Assembly: GCA_964016885.1 (NCBI GenBank)
Contig: OZ024743.1
Span: 53,816,001 to 53,880,000 of the forward strand
Direction of reading: 5' to 3'
Source of the DNA: Eledone cirrhosa
Taxonomy: Eukaryota
Length of the DNA stretch: 64,000 nucleotides
In this document: positions 6,306 to 63,785 of the stretch, in pieces
Layout of the letters: every line of letters starts with the position of its first letter
How positions within the stretch are numbered: the first letter of the stretch is position 1
The notes under the pieces: model-generated
Databases searched by the model: none
What the model saw: the letters and a program-made list of their open reading frames with translations, nothing else
What the model was told of the DNA's origin: nothing
Position numbers and translations under genes: made by a program

Positions 6306-9300
6306 TTACAGATATATACTCAGAGTAGACCCATTCACTCGGGCCATTCTTGCTTCTCTCACCCATCTTTCAACAAAATGCTGGGAAGAGAGCACTTCCC
6401 TCTCTACTCTGATTTTCCTTTTCAAATGAAATTTGAAAAAGTCAATCAGAGCATCACCGAAGAGGTAAGTGCTCGTCTTCAGCCCTTTCAAACGTGTCCA
6501 CCATACTATCTCTTTCACCATGGCGACCAGGCAGATAAAAACTGCCTGCCCTTCCCGGCTAAAGGAGGAGGGCGGGGCAATCCTCACGATGGACTCAGAT
6601 GATAGCCGGATCCGTCCTAAACGCGACAGCAGGTGTTCGACATAAACCCACAAGTCAGCAATTTTCGGACACTGGACGAGTGCGTGCAGGACGGTTTCGT
6701 CGCCCTGCGCGCATCTCGGACATGCCCGGCTGACGACACCTCCATGCCTGTAGAGTTTATCCCGAACTGGCAAGGCTCCTCGGTAGCACTGCCAGGCCAG
6801 AGATTTCTGGAAGTTGTCCATAGGCCCTGGCCCGAAAGTTCTTCCGAAGAGATTGGCTAGTTGATTTTCGTCGACGCCTAGAGTTTCCCCAAGTACGTCG
6901 TCGCTCTTCCCCTCCACTAATCCTCTATAGAACGCCGAGGTGGAGTTTCCACCGATCACATTGCCCGATTGGTCGAGGGCTGTGAGCGCCTGAAAACATT
7001 CCAGTCTCCAGGCGCTCCCTCTAGGTCTTCGCTTGACCCAGGACTGCAGCTCCGTCAAGGAAACGAGCTGGGGAAAAACGCGTCTAGCAAACGGCGACCA
7101 CACCTGATCACCGTCGAGGAAGAGGTGGAGATGTCGTAGCCTGAGCGCGTGCCTGCGCATCATCAGCCACGGCCTGCCCAGCCCTCCACGTAGCGGGTGT
7201 TGACAACAGATGGACGGCCTGACCATCGGAGCACGTCCCTTCCACAAAAAGCGAAAGAGCAAACGCTCCAGCGCAGTCAGGCGAGGCTTAGGACAAGGTA
7301 CGACGGTTAGGCGGTAGCAGATGACAGACGCGATGTACGCGTTAGCCACCTCCGCTCGACCTTTCAGGGATAGCTTCCTCTCGGCCCATTTCTTGGTGAG
7401 AGAAGCCACCCTGCTCGTCACCTCGTCCCAGTTTTTGTCCGTCTGGAGGTCCGGACCGAACCAGACCCCTAGCAATTTAACCGGTCCGTCCGTCCAGCGC
7501 CCGACGACGCTGTTGGACGGCATGGACCTGCCTCTCCAGGTGCCGAGCTGCAGGCCCACCGACTTTTCCTGGTTGATCATTGCTCCTGTCACCGCTTCGT
7601 ATTCTCTTAGTGTAGTGCCGATCGCCTCGATGTGTTTGGCGTTCGACACCACTACGGTGACATCGTCCGCATATGCTGACACGGATCTTCCGCATCCTAG
7701 TTCGCGCGGGACTCCCCTCAACGTCTCCAGTTTGTGCAGTAATGGCTCGAGAGTCAATACGTACAAGAGGGACGAGAGGGGACATCCTTGGCGGACCGAG
7801 CGCATGATGTTGAACGGTTCCGACAGGTGACCGTTCACTCTCACCACAGAGCAGATGTCGCTGTGCATGGCAGCGATCCAGCCTCTGAAGACGGGCCCAA
7901 AGCCAGCCGCCCTCAGGACTGCCGCTAGGTAACGATGGTCGACCCTATCGAAAGCTTTCGACTGATCTAAATTGATCAAGGACCCACCCGTGCCAGGTTC
8001 CTTAGCTACCCTCTCTATGATGTATCGCATGAGGTGGAGGTTGTCGTGGATGGATCTGTCGGGAATGGCGCATGTCTGCGCCTCTCCCACCAGACTACCA
8101 ACGACAAGCGCCAACCTCTTTGCTAGCACCTTGGCCAAAATCTTGAACTCTGTGTTTAGCAGAGTTATGGGCCGGAAATTGTCTATGTTATCCCCCTTGT
8201 TCGGATCCTTTCTCAGCAGTGCCACCGCTCCTCGGCTCACAGAACTGGGAATTCTCCCGTTCTGTTGCCAGTTGCAGTAGACGTCCGCCAAGAGGCCTCC
8301 GAACAAGTCTGGCATCTGTACGTAAAGTTCATAGGGCAGACCATCCAAACCAGGCGATTTACCCCTTGTGCAGCCAGTCATTGCCTCCCTTACTTCAGCG
8401 GCTGTTATCGGCTTTTCGCAACACTTCGCCTCAGTGGCCGAGAGCCGCGGCAGTCCGTCGAGGTAGACACTAAAGTCCATCCCTCTACCCGGCCCCCCCG
8501 CTGCCCCCGAACAGCTGAGCGAAGTGTCGCTGAAAAGCTTCACACATTTGCCCGGGATCGAGTAGCATGCGCCCGTCGTGGTCCACCAAAGACCGGATCG
8601 TGGCTTTGTTGCCACGACGCGCCTCCGCCACTCAGGCCCATTGAACGGCTTTCGTCCCCTCGTGTCTGAGAGCACGCACCCTAGCTCTGACAACGCAGCC
8701 TTCGTGCTTTGCATTGAAGAATTGGTCAAGGGCCAATTTCGCCGCAAGCACGTCGGTCGCAATGCCTTTGCTAAGCGCCTCGTCTAATTTTCTAACTAGT
8801 TCTCCCTCTGCTCTATTTTTCTCTATTGCTAAAGCCTTACTAAACCTAATCGATTCTATTCTAATCGCTCTTTTCAGAGCAAACCACCACTTGTTGTTGA
8901 CGATGGCCCACGTCAACGCCCGCTTAACTAGTTCGCTAATCCGGTCTCTGTAGGCCTTGCGCGCTGGTAAGGACGCGTTTAGCTTCCAGTAGCCGGGTCC
9001 TCGTCTATGAAGCCTATCTAAGTCAAGCACACAGGTCACGAATTTGTGATCCGTGTAGCTGACTATCTTGAATTGTGGACAGCCTATGCTAGACCTATCT
9101 ATTTCCCTACAAAATACTCTATCTAGATATGATCTGGATGACCCTATGCGGTTTGTCCAAGTCCACATTGGCACATTCGGGAAATCCAATCGGTACCTGT
9201 CAGACAGTTCAAAACGCCTGAGCAGGTTGGTGAGGCTCTTGCACCCTCCACCCCTATCCGCTAATCTCACACAGTCCCAGCGTGCATCTAAGATCCCGTT

Positions 9301-9726
9301 CCAGTCGCCCACTAACACTAAAGAGCGGGACGTTCCAAGAAAGGTCTCCAGACGCCGGAAGAAATCAGGCCGCCCTGCTCCTGTCGGGGCATAGACGGCC
9401 ACTAGCCTGAAAGCTTGCCCGTCTCCGCTGGTCACGTCCAGCACCACCAGCTTACCCTCTGGGTCCAGGAAGATGGCCCGTATGGCGAGATCCAAACCTC
9501 TCCGAAAAAGCACAGCAACTCCTCCACCGGATCCAGGACGGCTGGGAGATGCGTACACATCGTAGCCGCCGAAGATCGGTGCGAAGGCCCGTGCTTCGGA
9601 GATTCTGGTCTCGCTGATGGCCACTACATCTATGTTTAGTGACCTGAGGTCGTTGAGCAGGTGACCCTGCTTCCATGACGACCCCAAGCCACGCGCATTT
9701 ATGCTGCCTATTCTGAGTGAGGTCAT
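6306..9726 (-). pseudogene. ORF2 of copy A (APE endonuclease-RT-Cys/His domain), disrupted
   Basis: CGA>TGA nonsense at 8632-8634 (CGA in copy B) plus +1 frameshift in the C-run at ~8493-8499; pieces 8632..9726 and 6306..8762 match the intact 1139-aa ORF. Confidence 0.93.
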
Positions 9727-9761
9727 GTTTAAAATAGAGTGGAAAAGATGGGAAAGACCAC

Positions 9762-11893
9762 TTACCGTACTTTTGGTAGAGGAGGGATGGTTTTTACATC
9801 CCTTTTCACTTGATCGTCTGGTGAAGGGACCGTTGAATCGTCCCTTCGGCTGGTCGTCGGCTCTTCTAAGAGAATGTCTGAATATACTCTTCGATTGATG
9901 GTTCCTCCTAGGTCCCTGAAATCACCAACTGCGTTGGGGAATTTCGTTTTAATGTTTGTGTATTGTTTCTGTGCTATTTTTAGCAGTCTTATGTTAGTTG
10001 GCGTTTTGATTGGTGCTGGTATTATGTAGTCCTGTTGTGAAATGTCTGTGTGTTCAATTATGTAAGTCATTAGTTTCTTGTTGTGTGTGTTTATTGCCGT
10101 GCATTTGTTTTTCTGGGGGTGGGTGTGGTTCTGCTATTTTCTTGTCGTTGTTGCTGGGTGTGTGTGTTTTGTTGTTGTGTTTGCGATGTTGGTGCTTGTG
10201 GTGGTGGTGTTGAAGGTGTTGTTGGCGGTGGGGTTGTCGCCGGTGGTGATGGTGGTGCTGGTGTGGGTGGTGATGGTGTTGGTGGTGTTGCTGCTGTGGG
10301 TCTCTTTGCAGTAGACTTTACCCTTTTCTCATTTCTTTCCTCCCTTTTCAAAGGCGACGATGCGCTGCTTCTGCGTTTGTGCCTTCTTGCGACCTTTTGC
10401 CATCCCTCTCCCACCTCACACTCCATGTCTGATTCTGTAAGGTCGGGGAGGGGTACCAGCTCCACTCTTTCACTTGTTGTTGTTGGTGATGTTTGCACTG
10501 GAGTCTCTGTTGCAGCTGCATTTGGTATTGCTGTTGTTGTTGTTAATATTTCCACTGCTGCTGCTGTCTTTGATTTCCGTGGAGTGGGTATGGGTGCCAC
10601 GGACCTATCGTTCCTGGTTGCCGCTTGTCCTGTTGCTGGTAGCCGTGGAGCCGGATTCGGAAGGAGGGGGGTTTTCTCCTTTCTCAGGGTCTTCTCGTTG
10701 CAGAAGGCCCTGAGGTGAGTCTTCGATCCACAGCGAAAGCATTTCGGGCGTTTGCCCTCAACACTTATGGGCAGTTGAGTGCCGTTATCGAAGTCTATCA
10801 CATCCGGGATAGCTTCGATGCACTCCTGGTTGGTTTGGATTAGCATCTCAATGGAGGAGCCGACCCAATCTTCTCTTACTTTTTTCTGTACTTGCAGTAC
10901 AGTTGTTTTGTCCTCGATTCCGACGAGGACAGACGCGGCCAGCCAAGAAGGGGTCATTCCGGGGGGGACGTGGGTCAGTTTGACCCTCACAATTTTTTGC
11001 CCGCAGTAGGAGGGCACCAACACCATTTCCTCGCTCCTTAGGGTCACTACTGATTGGGCCTTTGCCTCCTGGGGTGTGGCAAAAAGTAAGTCTACGGTGG
11101 CGTATTTTTTGCCTCGGGTGATGTGCGTTTTCCGCTGCCACACAGACCCCAAGGCTTTTTGTATTTGGGCCTCTGTGGCTCTTTCCACCCTACGGGATTT
11201 TGTACTTACTGTACGGTACGTGACCGTACAGTGCTCTTGGGTTTCGAAAAAATTTTTCGCTGCCTTGCAGATTGCTCGGTGTCCGTTCTTTGTCACCATC
11301 TTCTTCGCTTCCTCTAATTCCTCATTTGTTATGAGGATTGTTTCCAAGTTTTTCGCAATACCTGCAAATGAGATTGGTTTTTCTCTGCTGTTGTTGTTGT
11401 CGTCAGAGCTGCTGGTACTTTTGTTGTTGCTGCAGGTACTACGACTACTGCCTCCGCCGCTGTTGCTGTGGTTGTTGTTGGTGTTGCTGCTGCTAATGCT
11501 GTTGTTGTTTATGCTGCTGGTGATGCTGTTGCGGCTGCTACTGTTGTTTTCATTGTCACTGTTGCTGTTGTTATTACGGCTGCTACTGCTATTATTCCTG
11601 ACGTCAGACGAATGAACTGGGTTTTCGTATTTCCCGCACACCTGTTTCGTCGCTGTCGTCGTCGTCGTGGAGAAACCTTGCACGCTTTGCACGAGACTTT
11701 TCTTTTCTTTCGTCACTTGCGAAAGAGAAGGGAGGGAGAGAGACACATTTAAAGAAGGGAGGGAGAGAGACAATCTTCTCTCTGCTGTAGTGATGATTGA
11801 GGAAGAAGAAGACGGAATGAGTGGGAGTGACGTATGAAATTTCTTTTTCGTAGCCATGTTGTTTTTTTGTTTAAAATGAAATTTTGGGTACAA
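9762..11893 (-). pseudogene. ORF1 of copy A, frameshifted
   Basis: One G missing at ~10121 relative to copy B splits the 710-aa ORF into 600 aa + 102 aa. Confidence 0.88.
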
Positions 11894-12073
11894 AACCCCA
11901 ATAACTGGTTATTTAACCCCGAAGGGCCAAATAACGGACAGAAACACCCCTCTCACGAGGAGGAGGGTGTCTTTATCAACAATTTGGTTCAAGTTTTAAA
12001 CAATTTACAATTGTTTTAACGGTTAAAAATTACTATACCTTACAGAGCCGAGCCTCCGTCAACCATGGCATTC

Positions 12074-12108
<35 letters not shown>

Positions 12109-12115
12109 TAATGAT
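12074..12115. repeat. 42-bp direct repeat (putative target-site duplication), left copy
   Basis: (AAT)10 AAA AAT AAT GAT identical to 18144-18185, including the diagnostic AAA interruption. Confidence 0.8.
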
Positions 12116-12375
12116 TTCTTTATTGACCACAAGGGTTTACATAAAGTAGACATTAAGGACAGTGCAGGACAATGCAGGACGGTACAAATGGGCATTTCTG
12201 CGTGTAAAAAAACAAAAACAGAGGATGTAACAAAAATAACAATGAAAATAACAATGAAAAAATTCCCCAATAGGGGGGAGACTTCGGAGGGACATTTGTG
12301 GAGAAAGCCCAGTAAAAAGCCACAATGACCCTGACCACCAAGGCAAGTGCCCTCTCCCAGTTTTCCACCTTTAGT

Positions 12376-15300
12376 TTACAGATATATACTCAGAGTCGGC
12401 CCATTCACTCGGGCCATTCTTGCTTCTCTCACCCATTTTTCAACAAAATGCTGGGAAGAGAGCACTTCCTTCTCTACTCTGATTTTCCTTTTCAAATGAA
12501 ATTTGAAAAAGTCAATCAGAGCATCACCGAAGAGGTAAGTGCTCGTCTTCAGCCCTTTCAAACGTGTCCACCATACTATCTCTTTCGCCATGGCCACCAG
12601 ACAGATAAAAACTGCCTGCCCTTCCCGGCTAAAGGAGGAGGGCGGGGCAATCCTCACGATAGACTCAGATGATAGCTGGATCCGTCCTAAACGCGACAGC
12701 AGGTGTTCGACATAAACCCACAAGTCAGCAATTTTCGGACACTGGACGAGTGCGTGCAGGACGGTTTCGTCGCCCTGCGCGCATCTCGGACATGCCCGGC
12801 TGACGGCACCTCCATGCCTGTAGAGTTTATCCCGAACTGGCAAGGCTCCTCGGTAGCACTGCCAGGCCAGAGATTTCTGGAAGTTGTCCATAGGCCCCGG
12901 CCCGAAAGTTCTTCCGAAGAGATTGGCTAGTTGATTTTCGTCGACGCCTAGAGTTTCCCCAAGTACGTCGTCGCTCTTCCCCTCCACTAATCCTCTATAG
13001 AACGCCGAGGTGGAGTTTCCACCGATCACATTGCCCGATTGGTCGAGGGCTGTGAGCGCCTGAAGACATTCCAGTCTCCAGGCGCTCCCTCTCGGTCTTC
13101 GCTTGACCCAGGACTGCAGCTCCGTCAAGGAAACGAGCTGGGGAAAAACGCGTCTAGCAAACGGCGACCACACCTGATCACCGTCGAGGAAGAGGTGGAG
13201 ATGTCGTAGCCTGAGCGCGTGCCTGCGCATCATCAGCCACGGCATGCCCAGCCCTCCACGTAGCGGGTGTTGACAACAGATGGACCGCCTGACCATCGGA
13301 GCGCGTCCCTTCCACAAAAAGCGAAAGAGCAAACGCTCCAGCGCAGTCAGGCGAGGCTTAGGACAAGGTACGACGGTTAGGCGGTAGCAGATGACAGACG
13401 CGATGTACGCGTTAGCCACCTCCGCTCGACCTTTCAGGGATAGCTTCCTCTCCGCCCATTTCTGGGTGAGAGAAGCCACCCTGCTCGTCACCTCGTCCCA
13501 GTTTTTGTCCGTCTGGAGGTCCGGACCGAACCAGACCCCTAGCAATTTAACCGGTCCGTCCGTCCAGCGTCCGACGACGCTGTTGGACGGCATGGACCTG
13601 CCTCTCCAGGTGCCGAGCTGCAGGCCCACTGACTTTTCCTGGTTGATCATTGCTCCTGTCACCGCTTCGTATTCTCTTAGTGTAGTGCCGATCGCCTCGA
13701 TGTGTTTGGCGTTCGACACCACTACGGTGACATCGTCCGCATATGCTGATACGGATCTTCCGCATCCTAGTTCGCGCGGGACCCCCCTCAACGTCTCCAG
13801 TTTGTGCAGTAATGGCTCGAGAGTCAATACGTACAAGAGGGACGAGAGGGGACATCCTTGGCGGACCGAGCGCATGATGTTGAACGGTTCCGACAGGTGA
13901 CCGTTCACTCTCACCACAGAGCAGATGTCGCTGTGCATGGCAGCGATCCAGCCTCTGAAGACGGGCCCAAAGCCAGCCGCCCTCAGGACTGCCGCTAGGT
14001 AACGATGGTCGACCCTATCGAAAGCTTTCGACTGATCTAAATTGATCAAGGACCCACCCGTGCCAGGTTCCCTAGCTACCCTCTCTACGATGTATCGCAT
14101 GAGGTGGAGGTTGTCGTGGATGGATCTGTCGGGAATGGCGCATGTCTGCGCCTCTCCCACCAGACCACCAACGACAAGCGCCAACCTCTTTGCTAGCACC
14201 TTGGCCAAAATCTTAAACTCTGTGTTTAGCAGAGTTATGGGCCGGAAATTGTCTATGTTATCCCCCTTGTTCGGATCCTTTCTCAGCAGTGCCACCGCTC
14301 CTCGGCTCACAGAACTGGGAATTCTCCCGTTCTGTTGCCAGTTGCAGTAGACGTCCGCCAAGAGGCCTCCGAACAAGTTTGGCATTTGTACGTAAAGTTC
14401 ATAGGGCAGACCATCCAAACCAGGCGATTTACCCCTTGTGCAGCCACTCATTGCCTCCCTTACTTCAGCGGCTGTTATCGGCTTTTCGCAACACCTCGCC
14501 TCAGTGGCCGAGAGCCGCGGCAGTCCGTCGAGGTAGACACTAAAGTCCATCCCTCTACCCGGCCCACCGCTGCCCCCGAACAGCTGAGCGAAGTGTCGCT
14601 GAAAAGCTTCACACATTTGCCCGGGATCGAGTAGCATGCGCCCGTCGTGGTCCACCAAAGACCGGATCGTGGCTTTGTTGCCACGACGCGCCTCCGCCAC
14701 TCGGGCCCATTGAACGGCTTTCGTCCCCTCGTGTCTGAGAGCACGCACCCTTGCTCTGACAACGCAGCCTTCGTGCTTTGCATTGAAGAATTGGTCAAGG
14801 GCCAATTTCGCCGCAAGCACGTCGGTCGCAATGCCTTTGCTAAGCGCCTCGTCTAATTTTGTAACTAGTTCTCCCTCTGCTCTATTTTTCTCTATTGCTA
14901 AAGCCTTACTAAATCTAATCGATTCTATTCTAATCGCTCTTTTCAGAGCAAACCACCACTTGTTGTTGACGATGGCCCCCGTCAACGCCCGCTTAACTAG
15001 TTCGCTAATTCGGTCTCTGTAGGCCTTGCGCGCTGGTAAGGACGCGTTTAGCTTCCAGTAGCCGGGTCCTCGTCTATGAAGCCTATCTAAGTCAAGCACA
15101 CAGATCACGAATTTGTGGTCCGTGTAGCTGACTATCTTGAATTGTGGACAGCCTATGCTAGACCTATCTATTTCCCTACAAAATACTCTATCTAGATATG
15201 ATCTGGATGACCCTATGCGGTTTGTCCAAGTCCACATTGGCACATTCGGGAAATCCAATCGGTACCTGTCAGACAGTTCAAAACGCCTGAGCAGGTTGGT

Positions 15301-15795
15301 GAGGCTCTTGCACCCTCCACCCCTATCCGCTAATCCCACACAGTCCCAGCGTGCATCTAAGATCCCGTTCCAGTCGCCCACTAACACTAAAGAGCGCGAC
15401 GTTCCAAGAAAGGTCTCCAGACGCCGGAAGAAATCAGGCCGCCCTGCTCCTGTCGGGGCATAGACGGCCACTAGCCTGAAAGCTTGCCCGTCTCCGCTGG
15501 TCACGTCCAGCACCACCAGCTTACCCTCTGGGTCCAGGAAGATGGCCCGTATGGCGAGATCCAAACCTCTCCGAAAAAGTACAGCAACTCCTCCACCGGA
15601 TCCAGGACGGCTGGGAGATGCGTACACATCGTAGCCGCCGAAGATCGGTGCGAAGGCCCGTGCTTCGGAGATTCTGGTCTCGCTGATGGCCACTACATCT
15701 ATGTTTAGTGACCTGAGGTCGTTGAGCAGGTGACCCTGCTTCCATGACGACCCCAAGCCACGCGCATTTATGCTGCCTATTCTGAGTGAGGTCAT
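12376..15795 (-). CDS. ORF2: AP-like endonuclease + reverse transcriptase + C-terminal zinc-binding motif (Tx1 clade-like), 1139 aa
   Basis: APE motifs SINARGL, ISETR, VYAP, LVGDWN, YLDRVF, TDHK; linker GPGYWKLN; RT motifs PGLDGLP, FRPITLLN, DQSKAFDRVDH, VRQGCPLS, YADD; C-terminal CPRC...ETVLHALVQC. Confidence 0.96.
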   Translation of the reverse strand: MTSLRIGSINARGLGSSWKQGHLLNDLRSLNIDVVAISETRISEARAFAPIFGGYDVYASPSRPGSGGGVAVLFRRGLDLAIRAIFLDPEGKLVVLDVTSGDGQAFRLVAVYAPTGAGRPDFFRRLETFLGTSRSLVLVGDWNGILDARWDCVGLADRGGGCKSLTNLLRRFELSDRYRLDFPNVPMWTWTNRIGSSRSYLDRVFCREIDRSSIGCPQFKIVSYTDHKFVICVLDLDRLHRRGPGYWKLNASLPARKAYRDRISELVKRALTGAIVNNKWWFALKRAIRIESIRFSKALAIEKNRAEGELVTKLDEALSKGIATDVLAAKLALDQFFNAKHEGCVVRARVRALRHEGTKAVQWARVAEARRGNKATIRSLVDHDGRMLLDPGQMCEAFQRHFAQLFGGSGGPGRGMDFSVYLDGLPRLSATEARCCEKPITAAEVREAMSGCTRGKSPGLDGLPYELYVQMPNLFGGLLADVYCNWQQNGRIPSSVSRGAVALLRKDPNKGDNIDNFRPITLLNTEFKILAKVLAKRLALVVGGLVGEAQTCAIPDRSIHDNLHLMRYIVERVAREPGTGGSLINLDQSKAFDRVDHRYLAAVLRAAGFGPVFRGWIAAMHSDICSVVRVNGHLSEPFNIMRSVRQGCPLSSLLYVLTLEPLLHKLETLRGVPRELGCGRSVSAYADDVTVVVSNAKHIEAIGTTLREYEAVTGAMINQEKSVGLQLGTWRGRSMPSNSVVGRWTDGPVKLLGVWFGPDLQTDKNWDEVTSRVASLTQKWAERKLSLKGRAEVANAYIASVICYRLTVVPCPKPRLTALERLLFRFLWKGRAPMVRRSICCQHPLRGGLGMPWLMMRRHALRLRHLHLFLDGDQVWSPFARRVFPQLVSLTELQSWVKRRPRGSAWRLECLQALTALDQSGNVIGGNSTSAFYRGLVEGKSDDVLGETLGVDENQLANLFGRTFGPGPMDNFQKSLAWQCYRGALPVRDKLYRHGGAVSRACPRCAQGDETVLHALVQCPKIADLWVYVEHLLSRLGRIQLSSESIVRIAPPSSFSREGQAVFICLVAMAKEIVWWTRLKGLKTSTYLFGDALIDFFKFHLKRKIRVEKEVLSSQHFVEKWVREARMARVNGPTLSIYL

Positions 15796-15830
15796 GTTTA
15801 AAATAGAGTGGAAAAGATGGGAAAGACCAC

Positions 15831-17963
15831 TTACCGTACTTTTGGTAGAGGAGGGATGGTTTTTACATCCCTTTTCACTTGATCGTCTGGTGAAGGGACC
15901 GTTGAATCGTCCCTTCGGCTGGTCGTCGGCTCTTCTAAGAGAATGTCTGAGTATACTCTTCGATTGATGGTTCCTCCTAGGTTCCTGAAATCACCAACTG
16001 CGTTGGGGAATTTCGTTTTAATATTTGTGTATTGTTTCTGTGCTATTTTTAGCAGTCTTATGTTAGTTGGCGTTTTGATTGGTGCTGGTATTATGTAGTC
16101 CTGTTGTGAAATGTCTGTGTGTTCAATTATGTAAGTCATTAGTTTCTTGTTGTGTGTATTTATTGCCGTGCATTTGTTTTTCTGGGGGTGGGGTGTGGTT
16201 CTGCTATTTTCTTGTCGTTGTTGCTGGGTGTGTGTGTTTTGTTGTTGTGTTTGCGATGTTGGTGCTTGTGGTGGTGGTGTTGAAGGTGTTGTTGCCGGTG
16301 GGGTTGTCGCCGGTGGTGATGGTGGCGCTAGTGTGGGTGGTGATGGTGTTGGTGTTGTTGCTGCTGTGGGTCTCTTTGCAGTAGACTTTACCCTTTTCTC
16401 ATTTCTTTCCTCACTTTTCAAAGGCGACGATGCGCTGCTTCTGCGTTTGTGCCTTCTTACGACCTTTTGCCATCTCTCTCCCACCTCACACTCCATGTCT
16501 GATTCTGTGAGGTCGGGGAGGGGTACCAACTCCACTCTTTCACTTGTTGTTGTTGGTGATGTTTGCACTGGAGTCTCTGTTGCAGCTGCATTTGGTATTG
16601 CTGTTGTTGTTGTTAATATTTCCACTGCTGCTGCTGTTTTTGATTTCCGTGGAGTGGGTATGGGTGCCACGGGCCTATCGTTCCTGGTTGCCGCTTGTCC
16701 TGTTGCTGGTAGCCGTGGAGCCGGATTCGGAAGGAGGGGGGTTTTCTCCTTTCTCAGGGTCTTCTCGTTGCAGAAGGCCCTGAGGTGAGTCTTCGATCCA
16801 CAGCGAAAGCATTTCGGGCGTTTGCCCTCAACACTTATGGGAAGTTGAGTGCCGTTATCGAAGTCTATCACATCCGGGATAGCTTCGATGCACTCCTGGT
16901 TGGTTTGGATTAGCATCTCAATGGAGGAGCCGACCCAATCTTCTCTTACTTTTTTCTGTACTTGCAGTACAGTTGTTTTGTCCTCGATTCCGACGAGGAC
17001 AGACGCGGCCAGCCAAGAAGGGGTCATTCCGGGGGGGACGTGGGTCAGTTTGACCCTCACAATTTTTTGCCCACAGTAGGAGGGCACCAACACCATTTCC
17101 TCGCTCCTTAGGGTCACTACTGATTGGGCCTTTGCCTCCTGGGGTGTGGCAAAAAGTACGTCTACGGTGGCATATTTTTTGCCTCGGGTGATGTGCGTTT
17201 TCCGCTGCCACACAGACCCCAAGGCTTTTTGTATTTGGGCCTCTGTGGCTCTTTCCACCCTACGGGATTTTGTACTTACTGTACGGTACGTGACCGTACA
17301 GTGCTCTTGGGTTTCGAAAAAATTTTTCGCTGCCTTGCAGATTGCTCGGTGTCCGTTCTTTGTCACCATCTTCTTCGCTTCCTCTAATTCCTCATTTGTT
17401 ATGAGGATTGTTTTCAAGTTTTTCGCAATACCTGCAAATGAGATTGGTTTTTCTCTGCTGTTGTTGTTGTCGTCAGAGCTGCTGGTACTTTTGTTGTTGC
17501 TGCAGGTACTACGACTACTGCCTCCGCCGCTGTTGCTGTGGTTGTTGTTGGTGTTGCTGCTGCTAATGCTGTTGTTGTTTATGCTGCTGGTGATGCTGTT
17601 GCGGCTGCTACTGTTGTTTTCATTGTCACTGTTGCTGTTGTTATTACGGCTGCTACTGCTATTATTCCTGACGTCAGACGAATGAACTGGGTTTTCGTAT
17701 TTCCCGCACACCTGTTTCGTCGCTGTCGTCGTCGTCGTGGAGAAACCTTGCACGCTTTGCACGAGACTTTTCTTTTCTTTCGTCGCTTGCGAAAGAGAAG
17801 GGAGGGAGAGAGACACATTTAAAGAAGGGAGGGAGAGAGACAATCTTCTCTCTGCTGTAGTGATGATTGAGGAAGAAGAAGACGGAATGAGTGGGAGTGA
17901 CGTATGAAATTTCTTTTTCGTAGCCATGTTGTTTTTTTGTTTAAAATGAAATTTTGGGTACAA
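15831..17963 (-). CDS. ORF1: gag-like nucleic-acid-binding protein with one CCHC zinc knuckle, 710 aa
   Basis: CFRCGSKTHLRAFC (C-x2-C-x4-H-x4-C); RRM-like segment upstream (YATVDVLF, VRVKLTHVPP); Ser/Asn-rich and Pro/Thr-rich low-complexity flanks; lies upstream of ORF2. Confidence 0.9.
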   Translation of the reverse strand: MYPKFHFKQKNNMATKKKFHTSLPLIPSSSSSIITTAERRLSLSLPSLNVSLSLPSLSQATKEKKSLVQSVQGFSTTTTTATKQVCGKYENPVHSSDVRNNSSSSRNNNSNSDNENNSSSRNSITSSINNNSISSSNTNNNHSNSGGGSSRSTCSNNKSTSSSDDNNNSREKPISFAGIAKNLKTILITNEELEEAKKMVTKNGHRAICKAAKNFFETQEHCTVTYRTVSTKSRRVERATEAQIQKALGSVWQRKTHITRGKKYATVDVLFATPQEAKAQSVVTLRSEEMVLVPSYCGQKIVRVKLTHVPPGMTPSWLAASVLVGIEDKTTVLQVQKKVREDWVGSSIEMLIQTNQECIEAIPDVIDFDNGTQLPISVEGKRPKCFRCGSKTHLRAFCNEKTLRKEKTPLLPNPAPRLPATGQAATRNDRPVAPIPTPRKSKTAAAVEILTTTTAIPNAAATETPVQTSPTTTSERVELVPLPDLTESDMECEVGERWQKVVRRHKRRSSASSPLKSEERNEKRVKSTAKRPTAATTPTPSPPTLAPPSPPATTPPATTPSTPPPQAPTSQTQQQNTHTQQQRQENSRTTPHPQKNKCTAINTHNKKLMTYIIEHTDISQQDYIIPAPIKTPTNIRLLKIAQKQYTNIKTKFPNAVGDFRNLGGTINRRVYSDILLEEPTTSRRDDSTVPSPDDQVKRDVKTIPPLPKVR

Positions 17964-18143
17964 AACCCCAATAACTGGTTATTTAACCCCGAAGGGCCAA
18001 ATAACGGACAGAAAGACCCCTCTCACGAGGAGGAGGGTGTCTTTATCAACAATTTGGTTCAAGTTTTAAACAATTTACAATTGTTTTAACGGTTAAAAAT
18101 TACTATACCTTACAGAGCCGAGCCTCCGTCAACCATGGCATTC

Positions 18144-24524: not shown

Positions 24525-24555
<31 letters not shown>

Positions 24556-24562
<7 letters not shown>

Positions 24563-24831
24563 GTATATATTCAGTTAAAAACTCAAAATAGTCTCTTGCA
24601 ATTAAATAGCTCAAGGAAAGAGATTTTTCCGAGCCGTATATTATAATTGAATATAAAAGAGAAATAAACACAGATATATACACATATGAGTTCAAATCGT
24701 AAGGGACCAGCATCGCTAGGCTGAAAAAAATACCAACTATAACCAATAGGGTTTGCCAGACTCAATTTAAAAGAATAAATCAAGAAAATAAATACAAACC
24801 GGTATGGGATAACTACCAAACACCCAGACAG
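24556..24831 (-). mobile_element. (TA)n-flanked short element, homologous to 61392-61665 (region downstream of hammerhead)
   Basis: Clear reverse-complement similarity, also visible in the ORF track (24510..24746 versus 61476..61781); TA repeats on both sides. Confidence 0.8.
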
Positions 24832-34000: not shown

Positions 34001-34345
<345 letters not shown>

Positions 34346-34418: not shown

Positions 34419-34803
34419 AGTTATTTTATTTGTTGGTTATTCAATAAAATTAGTTTATAACAGATTAGAACCACTCTACAAATTTCTTCTGGAGTATAAT
34501 ATCAATAATATTAATAAATTGAAACTATCTTTATAAAACCATATTTATTTTTTTATATATATTTCAAAGGTACCAACATTTTTGGTACGCACTCATCAGA
34601 TAAAATACTCTTCACGTAAAATATAATACTAATAATTATTTAAATTTACTTAGTGTCTAAATATAACGATCTTGATCAATTTCAACGTGACCCTCATGAG
34701 CATATTCATTCCATGTTTTGAAGTTCTTTTTCATTATTCAAACAGAACTCAAGACACTAAGTTCTTGTCTTGAATATGTCACTATCTGTAAAACAACTTT
34801 TGT

Positions 34804-34863
34804 ATTTTATCTGATGAGAGCGTACCAAAAATGTTGGTACCCTTGAAATATATATAATGAAAT
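34804..34863 (+). ncRNA. Type I minimal hammerhead ribozyme motif (family C)
   Basis: Stem I ATTTTAT/ATGAAAT; CTGATGA 34811; stem II GAG.GTACCA/TGGTAC.CTT; GAAAT-ATAT-ATA; inverted partner at 34500-34607; other copies (minus strand) with core at 50295, 59726, 61907, 63687. Confidence 0.8.
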
Positions 34864-34905: not shown

Positions 34906-34969
<64 letters not shown>

Positions 34970-34974
<5 letters not shown>

Positions 34975-35275
34975 TGTATATAGTGTATTTTGCAATACAC
35001 TGTATGCTTAATTAAAAGCATTTCGAAGACCTTACGCTATTGTTTTAGAGTAGTGACAGTCTCACTTACTTTAATTTTCAGCAAACAGGGGAGCTAAAGC
35101 TGACAGAGCTATGTTTCGCACTTTTTGGTGCTTATCAAAGCTAAGTACTCCGCTTGTTTGCTGAAAATCATGAATGTTTGATTCTTATAGAATTCTAGTA
35201 ATAATCAGGAACTGATTATACAGAGCGGTTGCCGGTCAAGCAGAAAATTAGAATTGGTGCTCTGAAATAGCGATA
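34970..35275 (-). mobile_element. (TA)n-associated short element (family D) with variant hammerhead at 35098-35142
   Basis: Homologous to 63028-63535 and 60630-60955; minus-strand AGCT-TTGATAA-GCAC/GTGC-GAAAC...GTC-AGCT. Confidence 0.75.
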
Positions 35276-35734: not shown

Positions 35735-35960
35735 AACGAGTAGGACCCCGACGGCTGAGCTCGAGCCGTTTCGACGGCTAATTCTGGACTAAATGAACAT
35801 TTTTATCGGATAAAAATTTAGTCCAGAATTAGCGGTCGAAACGGCTTCAGCTCAGCCGTCGGGGCCCTACTCGTTCCTATTACCCACTCTACTACCCTAA
35901 GTATTGAGTACTTTGGTGCGTTATGGTCCATATGGTTCCTTACCACATTTCCTTCGTTAT
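35731..35960 (+). mobile_element. Fold-back short element (family E) in (TA)n with 3' half of a hammerhead
   Basis: Arms 35731-35794 and 35816-35879; GAAACGGC...GCCGTC stem III; shared tail TTACCCACTCTACTACCC...CCTTCGTTATA also at 41815-42012, 50892-50940 and 51198-51325. Confidence 0.8.
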
Positions 35961-36994: not shown

Positions 36995-38007
36995 AAAGAC
37001 TTAGCTTCTACCTTCAATGAGTTAGGACTTAGGATAACAGTACCTACCAACCGCTCTAGCGTAGATTTCTTGGACATTAATTTAGACCTTCGCACACACA
37101 CCTACAGACCCTTCCATAAGCTAAACGAAAAACTCAATTACCTTCACAAGGACTCATGCCACCTTCCCACTGTTTTTAGAAACTTCCTAAATAATATCAG
37201 TACTAGAATCTCAAACCTCTCCTCTAAGGCTATCTTTGACAGGGCGGCACCCTATATAACACGGCGTTAGCTAACAGCGGCTTCTCGCAACCTATCATTT
37301 ACTCTCCCACTATCAACAACAGCACTAAGAAAAGAAAGCGTAACAATAGACAAACCATCTGGTTCTCTCCTCCCTTCTCACTCAACGTTAAAACCAATGT
37401 AGGCAAAACATTTCTAGCCCTCTTAGATAGACACTTTCCCATAGGTCATAAATACCGCTCCATCTTTAACCGACACAAAGTAAAACTAGGATACTCCTAC
37501 GCTAAGAACATGAAGGCCCACATCACCAACAGCCCTAAGAGCAACATCCCACCAGAATGCTCTTGTCGTAGGCCCGAAGCTTGTCCCCTTCAACAACAAT
37601 GCAACACACCCGCTGTAGTTTATGAAGCTGTGTTCACTTCCAACCGACCAAATCAACCACAAGAGGTCAACTTCTATGTGGGTATGGCGGAGGGCCGATT
37701 TAAGGAACGCTTCCTGAACCACCAGTCGACCTTTAGGTATCCGGACAGACGTTCATCCACGAAACTCGCGAGCCACGTATGGTCCCTCAAGGACTCAAGT
37801 ATAGACTACTCCATTCAATGGAAAGCCATCACTAAGTCCAAGCCATACGCAAGGGGAAATCCGTCGTGTGGACTATGTATTGATGAACGAATAAATATTC
37901 TAAAGAGGTTATGCAATAGCGATTGCCTAAACACGAGCAATGAATTCTTCACACGTTGTCCACAGGTCTCGATACATCGCCTACGTAACTACAAAGCTCC
38001 GGATTGA
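36995..38007 (+). pseudogene. Naiad-type RT thumb + GIY-YIG endonuclease, truncated, one frameshift near 37255
   Basis: ORFs 37070..37270 and 37510..38007 join via the open stretch YNTALANSGF...YSYAKNMK. Confidence 0.85.
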
Positions 38008-38164
38008 ATTACAACAACACCCTAATTTTCTTATCAACTAGAAACTTTTCGGACTTTCGCAGTTATCTCCCTTACACCTCTCGCACGCATTTTAGTATTG
38101 CCTGTGTGAAGTGTTCGTTTCTGCGCATGCGCGTTCGTACGGTTGTCCTTCCTGTTCCGTATAA

Positions 38165-38214
38165 CCATTACGAGCTGAGGATCCACTAAGGTGAAACAAT
38201 TGTTCTCGGTATGG
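38165..38214 (+). ncRNA. Type I minimal hammerhead ribozyme motif in the Naiad 3' pLTR
   Basis: Stem I CCAT.. CGAG / CTCG.. ATGG; CTGAGGA 38175; short stem II; GAAAC-AATT-GT-T with palindromic ACAATTGT; second copy at 34225-34274. Confidence 0.82.
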
Positions 38215-38303
38215 TGAACTAACTGTTGTGTAACCACTTCTACCTAACTCGTCCCATGGACTGAGTGCTCTACCACCACGGATATTACCTTCCAGTGTTC
38301 TAC

Positions 38304-38364
<61 letters not shown>

Positions 38365-38367
<3 letters not shown>

Positions 38368-39110
38368 CCTGAGTTGCCTTCTCCTAGAAGAATGCCCTGA
38401 CAAAGTTTAGGGGCCCTTCACTCCCAGTGGTTTGACCGCGCGGTACATGTGTATATATATATTTACAGACTTTTGGATGGCCGTCGATTCTTACGGGTTC
38501 TTCCGCCCTTTGTCAGGTTTTGTTTTTTGTCCTGCAGAGTGTCCAAAATCCCCCTCCTCACCAAGTAAACTTGGTGGGGTTGCCGGTTTAGTCGCCGACG
38601 ACCCGACCATGCGACATACATACATGCATACATACATACTTACATAAATGCCCAGGTAACACAGCTACTATGGCATTATATGTCTACATACACAGATACA
38701 TGGATGCATACTTACCTAGAATTACATATATATATATATATATATATATGTAATTCTAGGTAAGTATGCATCCATGTATCTGTGTATGTAGACATATAAT
38801 GCCATAGTAGCTGTGTTACCTGGGCATTTATGTAAGTATGTATGTATGTATGTATGTATGTCGTATGGTCGGGTCGTCGGCGACTAAACGGGCAACCCCA
38901 CCAAGTTTACTTGGTGAGGAGAGGGATTTTGGACACTCTGCAGGACAAAAAACAAAACCTGACAAAGGGCGGAAGAACCCGTAAGAATCGACGGCCATCC
39001 AAAAGTCTGTAAATATATATATACACATGTACCGCGCGGTTAAACCACTGGGAGTGAAGGGCCCCTAAACTTTGTCAGGGCATTCTTCTAGGAGAAGGCA
39101 ACTCAGGAAA
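38365..39110. repeat. 746-bp spacer-less palindrome centred on (TA)n at ~38737
   Basis: Left and right halves are reverse complements with about 5 mismatches seen. Confidence 0.95.
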
Positions 39111-59920: not shown

Positions 59921-60168
59921 TTTATTTTGTTAATATTCATAAACGAAACAAAAGCTTTAACCAAGGTTTCACGGCCCAATATTGACCACACCTCCAAAAT
60001 ACAAGAGGCATCAAAATTGTCACCTATTGTCAGGTGCTTATACTCGTATAAGCGCTTGAAGATAGGTCACAATTTTGATCCTTCTTGTATTCTGGAGGTG
60101 TGGTCAATATTGGGCCTTGAAACCTTGGTTAAAGCTTTTGTTCCGTTTATGAATATTAATAAATAATA
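59921..60168. repeat. ~120-bp-arm fold-back with decayed hammerhead-like motif
   Basis: Arms meet at CTTATA-CTCG-TATAAG (~60044); right arm TTGAAGA...long stem...GAAAC-CTTG-GTT. Confidence 0.85.
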
Positions 60169-60560: not shown

Positions 60561-60632
<72 letters not shown>

Positions 60633-61320
60633 GATTGGTGCTCTGAAATAGCGATGTAAACATGAATGTATGTATAGTATATTTGGCAATATACCGTATG
60701 TTTAATTAAAAACATTTTGAAGACCATACGCTATCAGTTTTAAAGTAGTGACTATGTCCCTTACTGCTTTTCGACGAAAGAAGGAAGAGAAGCTAACAGT
60801 CTGTTCACGCTGTTGGCGATCATCAGAGCCACGCACCGAAAATTATAGAAGCTGGATTCTTATAGAATTCCAGTAATAGTCAGGAGCTGATTATACAAAG
60901 CGGTTGCCGGTCCACCAAAAATTAGGTATTAGGATTGGTGCTCTGAAATAACGATGTATGTATAGTATATTTGGCAATATACCGTATGTTTAATTAAAAA
61001 CATATATATAGTATAATTGAATATAAAAGAGAGATAAACACAGATATATACATATACGGCTCGGAAAAATCTCTTTCCTTGAGCTATCTTGAGCTATTTA
61101 ATTGTAAAAGACTATTTTGAGTTTCTGACTCAATATATACCTTTGATATATTCGGCTCCTTCAATTTGTTGAGCTAATTTAAATGTCGACTAAACTTGGC
61201 TGCTATTTTTTAGTAGTATACGTTTATGACACGCTATGTTCTGATGCCATGTGCGTTATTTTATATACGCACACTATTCAGTTTTCTGAGATACTTAGAA
61301 GTGATAAGTTTGCTAATTTT

Positions 61321-61403
61321 ACATCCACTGATGAGCAAAAAGAATTGGTAATTCTCTTCACAATTAAATTGCGAAACAGCATCACCAAACGCTGTCTGGG
61401 TGT
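61321..61403 (+). ncRNA. Canonical type I hammerhead ribozyme motif
   Basis: Stem I ACATCCA/TGGGTGT; CTGATGA 61328; stem II GCAA/TTGC; GAAAC 61373; stem III ACAGC/GCTGT; GTC triplet 61394-61396. Confidence 0.85.
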
Positions 61404-61660
61404 CTGGTAGTTTCCACAATTCCGGTTTGTATTTATTTTCTTGATTTATTCTTAAATTGAGTCTGGCAAACCCTATTGTTCATAGTTAGTATCTTATTCA
61501 CCCTAGCAAACCTGGTCCCTTACGATTTGAACACATATGTCTATATATCTGTGTTTATCTCTCTTTTATATTCAATTATAATGTACGGCTCGGAAAAATC
61601 TCTTTCCTTGAGCTATTTAATTGTAAGAGACTATTTTGAGTTTCTAACTAAATATATACC

Positions 61661-61729
<69 letters not shown>

Positions 61730-62088
61730 ACAGTTCTATTTAAATTGTTGGGATACAACAAGCAAATATTTTTATAACTGATATAAAGCACTCGACAAGT
61801 ATTTGGAGTAGATATACGATATTAACAAATGGAAACTATATTTATAAAACCATATTTATTTCATTATACATATTTCAAGGATACCAAGTTAAATGATGGT
61901 ATACCTTCATCAGACAAAATACAATATATACCAGTTTTATAAATAAACATTGACGTACCCTTTCAAAATGCAACCGTTACTTTTGGAAGACATCAGGATA
62001 TCCTGACGTCTTGTAACTTGGTATCCTTGAAATATGTATAATGAAATAAATATGGTTTTATAAATATAGTTTCCATTTGTTAATATCG

Positions 62089-62973: not shown

Positions 62974-63027
<54 letters not shown>

Positions 63028-63032
<5 letters not shown>

Positions 63033-63535
63033 TGTATATACAGTGTATTTTGCAATACACTGTATGCTTAATTAAAATCATTTCGAAGAACTTACGCTAT
63101 TGTTTTAGAGTAGTGACAGTCTCACTTACTTCAATTTTCAGCAAATAAGGGAGATAAAGCTGACAGAGCTCTGTTTCGCACTTTTTGGTTATCAAAGCTA
63201 GCTAATCAGGAATTGATTATACAATTTCTGCTTGACCGGCAACCGCTCTGTATAATCAGTTCCTGATTTGACAGGAATTCTATAAGAATCAAACATTCAT
63301 AATTTTCAGCAAACAGGCGGAGTAGTTAGCTTTGATAAGCACCAAAAAGTGCGAAACAGAGCTCTGTCAGCTTTATCTCCCCTATTTGCTGAAAATTGAA
63401 GTAAGTGAGACTGTCACTACTCTAAAACAACAGCGTAAGGTCTTCGAAATGCGTTTAATTAAGCATACAGTGTATTGCAAAATACATTATATATACATTC
63501 ATATATATATGGCTATTTCAGAGCTCCAATTCTAA
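63028..63535. mobile_element. Family D fold-back element in (TA)n
   Basis: 63028-63200 is the reverse complement of ~63328-63505. Confidence 0.85.
63303..63395 (+). ncRNA. Hammerhead motif with U3-A8 core variant and long stem I
   Basis: AGCT-TTGATAA(63332)-GCAC-CAAAAA-GTGC-GAAAC-AGAGCTCT-GTC-AGCT; stem I extended by TTTTCAGCAAA.AGG.GGAG/CTCCCCT.TTTGCTGAAAA. Confidence 0.72.
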
Positions 63536-63540
63536 TATAC

Positions 63541-63600
<60 letters not shown>

Positions 63601-63785
63601 ATATTAAATAAATGGAAACTATATTTATAAAACCATATTTATTCTGTTATATATATTTCAAGGGTACCAACAATTTTGGTACGCTATCATCAGATAAAAT
63701 AAACTGTTGAGTGCTCTGAATCAGTTATAAACACTTATATTTGTTGAATTACCAACAAATTGAATATCTCTTCTGCATACACACA

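Follow-up and report, generated by a model that had tools for sequence, protein, structure and literature searches.

The stretch of DNA analysed (the window) comprises 64,000 nucleotides from Eledone cirrhosa (assembly GCA_964016885.1, contig OZ024743.1, positions 53,816,001 to 53,880,000 of the forward strand), and all positions below are counted from its first letter. Close to its 3' end is a non-coding repeat unit, D1, with a putative type I hammerhead ribozyme in which core positions 3 and 8 read U and A. C3-G8 is a known tertiary pair of the hammerhead core. The unit occurs four times in the window (296-310 nt, 36-38% GC, hammerhead in the middle): D1, D2 and D3 make up family D, and the fourth copy is a diverged relative. 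No reading frame of 150 amino acids was found over the unit. The features are as follows.

63223..63536 (+): repeat unit D1, about 310 nt, 36% GC, non-coding, ending in a tail of about 25 nt (63512-63536) and then (TA)n; circular fold z -4.9
63303..63395 (+): putative type I hammerhead D1, the only one of the window's copies in which all three stems are intact
63304..63331 (+): stem I 5' strand, made up of a distal helix, an internal loop and 4 proximal bases (from the fold)
63332..63338 (+): core positions 3-9, U3 U4 G5 A6 U7 A8 A9 (from the sequence and the HH9 alignment)
63339..63352 (+): stem II, 4 bp, G10.1-C11.1, with the 6-nt loop CAAAAA (from the HH9 alignment and pairing; two pairs covary in reads)
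63353..63368 (+): G12 A13 A14, the 12-nt palindromic stem III (A15.1 at 63356 to U16.1 at 63367) and C17 at 63368 (from the descriptor and pairing)
63369..63394 (+): stem I 3' strand (from the fold and pairing)
63449..63488 (+): two hairpins 3' of the ribozyme; in each, one pair differs at both bases, in a compensatory way, when family D is compared with the relative (not significant against shuffles with three rows)
34970..35272 (-): D2, a full unit with its tail at the 5' end, U3-A8 core at 35138-35132 and one stem III mismatch, running into (TA)n at 34908-34969
63030..63225 (-): D3, inverted and 5'-truncated, directly next to the 5' end of D1; part of its interior is deleted, its stem II is broken, and it runs into (TA)n at 62977-63029
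60627..61003 (-): the relative, a partial tandem of about 1.25 units with a C3-G8 core at 60826-60820 and a damaged hammerhead, running into (TA)n

The core word TTGATAA was found at 63332-63338 (plus strand, D1), 35138-35132 (minus, D2) and 63195-63189 (minus, D3), and CTGATGA, the C3-G8 form, at 60826-60820 (minus) in the relative, just where the earlier note had placed them. The heptamer is common by itself, with 12 occurrences over both strands of the window. A full type I descriptor (stem II of at least 4 bp, stem III of at least 3 bp and stem I of at least 4 bp) was passed by two of the 12, compared with a mean of 0.01 and a maximum of 1 in 100 local shuffles, none of which reached two.

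Every consensus core position is kept in D1 apart from the paired swap at 3 and 8. When the cores were examined for a Watson-Crick 3:8 pair with all other positions present, D1, D2 and D3 passed with U3-A8 and the relative was found to be without one A. When the three helices were examined (an open stem I, A15.1-U16.1 and H17), D1 passed, D2 had one mismatch in stem III, and D3 and the relative failed. The 5' arm of stem II in D3 is without 3 nt, so that A9 is separated from G12 by 11 nt rather than 14, and the distal 5' arm of its stem I is missing. The lesions of the relative are the loss of one A of GAAA, U.U at the base of stem II, U17 for C17 and a gap of about 13 nt in the 5' arm of stem I; no hammerhead was matched by Rfam in 60690-61500 at E ≤ 10. 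The earlier statement that the family D copies all lie within good stems thus fails for D2 and D3. A U.U pair at the base of stem II is present in an axolotl hammerhead (PMC7229834), and the relative was considered as an intact variant; despite this precedent, the missing A and the gap in stem I argue against it, and a homopolymer assembly error is possible.

D1 aligned with the entire Rfam model Hammerhead_HH9 (RF02275, clan CL00010) over 63315-63390 at 28.1 bits, below the gathering score of 52, with E values of 3e-05 on a 271-nt stretch and 0.0072 on the entire window; D2 scored 25.9 bits, again under 52. The type I topology is that of HH9 and loop II is identical to its consensus, whereas proximal stem I has 4 Watson-Crick pairs, not 6, and the spacing of the 3' bulge is unlike HH9. 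In the public reads described below, about half have C at 63325, which gives UAC in the 5' bulge, as in HH9. These loop and bulge features were compared with a view to the loop I-loop II tertiary signature of canonical motifs. Compared with shuffles, the folds gave z values of -5.5 (D1), -5.1 (D2), +0.4 (D3) and +1.2 (relative). On this evidence the motif at 63332-63338 (plus strand) is a real type I hammerhead motif with a U3-A8 core, and likely to be self-cutting; from the hammerhead consensus, the cut is predicted to fall between 63368 and 63369.

Natural covariation of C3-G8 to U3-A8 was reported by Perreault et al. in 2011, with in vitro activity cited from earlier work (PMC3088659), in agreement with the description of U3-A8 in the earlier note as a functional natural variant. 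The active core variants given in the legend of their Figure S6 come from phage and bacterial gene contexts, not from a eukaryotic repeat. In Schistosoma mansoni, about 1,300 minimal hammerheads with U3-A8 were described in Cercyon Penelope elements, where a CUGANGA descriptor had missed them (Cervera and de la Pena 2014, PMC4209133). Family D is like the Cercyon motifs in its U3-A8 core, in belonging to an animal Penelope-related repeat, in being missed by CUGANGA and in occurring mostly as single copies. The Cercyon motifs, however, are described as having a stem II of 7-8 bp, an added base following A9 and hardly any stem III, and family D has none of these: the test for a minimal hammerhead (min-HHR) failed, positions 9 and 10.1 being adjacent, stem II being 4 bp long and stem III 12 nt. 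The swap itself is thus already published (phages in 2011, schistosome Penelope elements in 2014), and family D is mostly a further example. A literature search turned up no mention of U3-A8 for canonical type I retrozyme hammerheads; figures and supplements may contain cases. Two degenerate-motif scans of metagenome contigs gave 0 matches. A scan of viral contigs for the canonical motif with U3-A8 gave one match, which had no stem II pairing and was taken as chance.

The 3' ends of all four copies of the unit run into (TA)n. The terminal tail of about 25 nt of D1 stands at the start of D2, so the two copies are circular permutations of each other. D1 and D3 together form one inverted structure, whose 170-nt arms are 96% complementary. 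Head to tail, the window holds monomers and one 1.25-mer, without a true dimer. An inverted 5'-truncated copy, a partial tandem, a tail at one end and a (TA)n target are all present here, in line with the insertion pattern of Penelope-like elements, for which PMC8557442 lists partial tandems, an adjacent inverted truncated copy, a one-end tail and (TA)n targets; the tail is about 25 nt here and 30-40 bp in that description.

Metazoan non-LTR retrozymes have been described as repeats of 150-450 bp with less than 50% GC and a canonical type I hammerhead, occurring together with Penelope elements (Cervera and de la Pena 2020, PMC7229834). The present unit is likewise non-coding, within these limits of length and GC content, and carries one type I hammerhead with a 4-bp stem II; its circle is predicted to be self-paired and it, too, co-occurs with Penelope elements. 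A Penelope-type endonuclease fragment in the same window was counted in favour of the retrozyme reading. The unit differs from the retrozymes of that description in its U3-A8 core, in its 12-nt stem III palindrome where 1-2 bp is usual, and in the lack of a multimeric array in the window; its circular RNA is a prediction. Monomer-rich retrozyme families do exist (bioRxiv 10.64898/2026.07.22.740005).

The insertion hallmarks are the same as those of Penelope-like elements, and the unit could instead be a solo terminal repeat (pLTR) of an autonomous element of this kind, left after 5' truncation, which would leave the ribozyme reading unchanged. The first animal U3-A8 hammerheads were found in Penelope terminal repeats, mostly as single motifs (PMC4209133), and a 2026 preprint argues that retrozymes are themselves derived from such repeats (bioRxiv 10.64898/2026.07.22.740005). 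The segment 63223-63265 has about twice the depth of the hammerhead region in RAD reads and runs into other sequence on both sides, so it is common to another repeat family, which was counted in favour of the solo terminal repeat. Against a solo terminal repeat, D1 is a circular permutation of D2, the end of the unit is joined back to its start in 4 reads from two runs, and the sequence upstream of the 1.25-mer relative is its own 3' end, not coding sequence. In having a stem II of 4 bp, a long stem I and nothing inserted after A9, the hammerhead is canonical and not of the minimal Penelope type. No reading frame for a reverse transcriptase with GIY-YIG was found beside the unit at any of the four copies in the window. 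Blast of the unit against the terminal repeat of the window's one Penelope-type element gave no similarity, which counts against the preferred reading given below. A solo terminal repeat is considered unlikely, and the retrozyme reading is kept in what follows.

The Penelope-type element just mentioned is a 5'-truncated copy at about 37000-38305 (plus strand). Its frame at 37240-38007 has a CxC..C motif and, by atlas features, a GIY-YIG-like domain; a Pfam search of this frame gave 0 families. Its terminal repeat has a minimal hammerhead with the core at about 38175, it is flanked by (TA)n, and an inverted pair of the same terminal repeat lies at 34101-34306. A second hammerhead family, with C3-G8 and an AT-only palindromic stem III, occurs at 34811 (plus), 50301 (minus), 59732 (minus) and 61913 (minus), with related pieces at 34536-34608, 61737-62087 and 63592-63776; this family, too, lies beside (TA)n and partly in inverted pairs. 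The sequence TTCAGAGCAC, found at 35265, 60946, 60646, 63518 (one mismatch), 59842 and 63719, is common to the tail of family D and to this second family; in three copies it is on the same strand as the core and 100-120 nt upstream of it, and it is possibly a promoter or a signal of the helper element. A third hammerhead family at 61328 (plus) has C3-G8, a long loop II and a 5-bp stem III within a partial-tandem repeat of about 500 nt, and has a relative at 24552-24831. The minus strand of 6306-17978 holds two tandem LINE copies of about 6 kb with ORF1 and an ORF2 for endonuclease, reverse transcriptase and zinc finger (1,204 aa), one ORF2 being intact and the other split over two frames. Long, near-perfect inverted repeats at about 38480-39000 (centred on (TA)n), 35735-35880 and 59940-60150 are probably inverted insertions of other repeats. 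Rfam microRNA matches across the window were on simple repeats and were set aside.

Public DNA data gave better evidence than the copies in the window. A contig set and three runs of RAD-seq DNA that share one species label were aligned to 63222-63495 at an identity of at least 80%; the best-matching read set shared 36% of sampled words and may be from this species or a close one. On the 274-nt stretch there were 1,938 contigs and 5,441, 4,224 and 3,388 reads, of mixed identities, and family D is a high-copy family. Piles of read ends at 63276, 63397 and 63457-63464 coincide with GAATTC and TTAA sites and were rejected as RAD restriction sites, not biology.

Two of the four pairs of stem II are switched from C-G to U-A in these reads. 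At the first pair, C>T at 63340 was seen in 68-69% of reads across the three runs and G>A at its partner 63351 in 67-68%; at the second, C>T at 63342 and G>A at 63349 were each seen in 17-19%. Neither switch is at a CpG, and the partner shares track each other across six run and strand splits (r 0.999 and 0.993). These matched shares are evidence of linkage, not of selection, and the chance of two full pairs among four stem II variants is 0.086. The positions of loop II vary freely among the reads, and A>G at 63384, in 93-96% of reads, closes a mismatch in distal stem I.

None of the 13 core positions was among the best 40 of 324 changes, the weakest of which is at about 16-18%; the other 284 could include mixed states at 3 and 8. 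Changes at 3 or 8 are therefore probably rarer than about 16-18%, and so most reads with switched stem II pairs should be U3-A8. The comparison of core with non-core positions among the best 40 of the 324 changes (0/13 and 7/32, P 0.09) was not significant. U3-A8 and the second switched stem II pair were seen together in one read type (2 reads). A loose end from 4 contigs, gapless to 63316-63345, has C3-G8, and is a second witness of the consensus state in a sister subfamily. Only matched states, U3-A8 or C3-G8, were found in every copy or read that could be viewed. At the closing pair of stem II (63339/63352), the U3-A8 subfamily has G10.1-C11.1, the C3-G8 sister from the reads has A at 10.1 and the relative has U.U (60819/60807); the subfamily with the weaker core pair is the one with the stronger closing pair.

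The three D copies are 4.4-8.8% apart from each other and 27-30% from the relative. At this distance the three U3-A8 cores represent one mutation event, and the earlier use of them as separate pieces of evidence has to be given up. For two chosen sites, the chance that both change and still keep a Watson-Crick pair at about 28% divergence is 3-4%, so that the comparison of U3-A8 with C3-G8 inside the window, in which the comparator is damaged, is weak evidence, suggestive but not strong. Of 23 chosen pairs compared between D2 and the relative, 5 have changed at both bases, 4 of them with Watson-Crick pairing kept (expected 1.5, P 0.0005 for at least 5); this test is post hoc, as the helices were picked after viewing and a hairpin of 8 pairs, one of them broken in the relative, was left out. 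A count of pairs over three rows was equalled by 59 of 500 shuffles and was not significant. The word compensatory, as the earlier note applied it to the double change, is nevertheless likely to be right, given the published covariation and the matched states. The claim of selection can stand for the source copies, where the stem II pairs in the reads and the hairpins between subfamilies point to, without proving, a structure kept under selection, also after the swap. It does not extend to the genomic copies themselves, most of which, D3 and the relative included, are probably dead or decaying insertions.

The terminal repeats of the relative match almost perfectly (50/50 and 31/32 positions, with periods of 288 and 300) but its hammerhead has several lesions; the copy is either a recently mobilised defective template or an assembly error. 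A young-looking copy with a damaged hammerhead implies that insertion may not need an intact ribozyme, unless the assembly is locally wrong. The ribozyme of family D might similarly have been dead or dispensable by the time U3-A8 spread, two neutral transitions having hitch-hiked in a successful source copy that was copied by Penelope proteins whatever its cleavage. The young-looking relative fits this, as do the 3-4% chance of keeping the pair in a single event, the predicted misfolding of the monomer (below) and the Naiad Penelope elements, which are described as thriving without canonical hammerheads (PMC8557442). A dead ribozyme would not readily explain two two-sided stem II changes that keep pairing in reads that are mostly U3-A8, next to a freely variable loop, nor the finding that the CpG at C11.1-G12 is absent from the common changes while three other CpGs of the stretch are present. 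Loss of function before the spread is therefore held to be quite unlikely. It is very improbable that the paired changes came from hairpin repair or template switching at the DNA level, with the hammerhead look incidental. The unit is indeed a palindrome-rich chain of short hairpins, but the 3:8 pair is tertiary and hence beyond hairpin repair, the other core positions are all present and the descriptor match is far above chance.

The preferred reading, with a probability of about 70%, is that a type I hammerhead motif with U3-A8 lies in a high-copy non-coding repeat of about 300 nt, likely a non-LTR retrozyme, a non-autonomous element that is likely copied by the proteins of Penelope-like elements; a single change from C3-G8 in a source copy likely gave rise to the swap, and the ribozyme is likely still able to cut. 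The anatomy of the sequence, the structure and high number of the copies and the paired stem II changes in the reads are observed, and we infer transcription, cleavage, circles, a helper element and selection on the core itself. A transcript longer than the unit, or a tandem one, would fold into the hammerhead, for which a double form joined by the 12-nt palindromic stem III is probably the best. Cutting after C17 would release unit RNAs that would then be circularised; a Penelope reverse transcriptase and GIY-YIG endonuclease, provided in trans, would copy the circles into DNA and insert them at (TA)n. Self-cutting of a tandem transcript to unit RNAs, circles and reinsertion by Penelope proteins is a published model (PMC4209133).

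Folding calculations suggest a possible reason for the swap. Between the segments 63328-63334 and 63360-63366 the only difference is at position 3, which allows the 5' arm of stem III to base-pair with the core in place of its own partner. The predicted lowest-energy fold of the monomer is inactive and lies 3.3-4.4 kcal/mol below the active fold. With C3, the core would be closed off by this arm in an inactive helix of 7 perfect pairs; with U3 this helix would have one G.U wobble, lowering the penalty from about 6.7 to 3.7 kcal/mol (the calculated advantage of the inactive fold over the active monomer), and A8 would restore the tertiary pair. The difference of 3.0-3.3 kcal/mol between U3 and C3 persisted for both the linear and the circular form of the entire unit, at 20 °C as at 37 °C, and with the read-majority version. 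When the same swap was applied to 7 C3-G8 hammerheads of the window, the relative included, the energy needed to free the core changed by -1.1 to +1.4 kcal/mol, and in D2, where stem III is mutated, it changed by +0.6. A double hammerhead was better than two locked monomers by 9.5 kcal/mol with U3-A8 and by 4.3 with C3-G8. These are nearest-neighbour energies, excluding tertiary terms and concentration, and they bear on one evolutionary event, so the folding explanation is put forward as a hypothesis. What is new here is the prediction that the core would be locked by the palindromic stem III more tightly with C3 than with U3, by about 3 kcal/mol. It is possible, though doubtful, that U3-A8 was fixed in family D as a folding fix and not by neutral drift, giving a tuned switch in which the monomeric circle is locked and the multimer is opened as a double hammerhead. 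If true, a rare core would beat the consensus core in its own context.

If the ribozyme cuts, family D would be a high-copy, retrozyme-like animal family that is overlooked by CUGANGA descriptors and by Rfam gathering scores, and surveys that use these would undercount such elements. The earlier note was correct that CUGANGA searches miss the family, although this caveat has been in print since 2014 for the roughly 1,300 schistosome motifs (PMC4209133) and Rfam HH9 still matches D1 below its threshold. The more useful point is that the swap may have a testable cause: the consensus core is predicted to make this ribozyme worse, which bears on how rare core variants persist.
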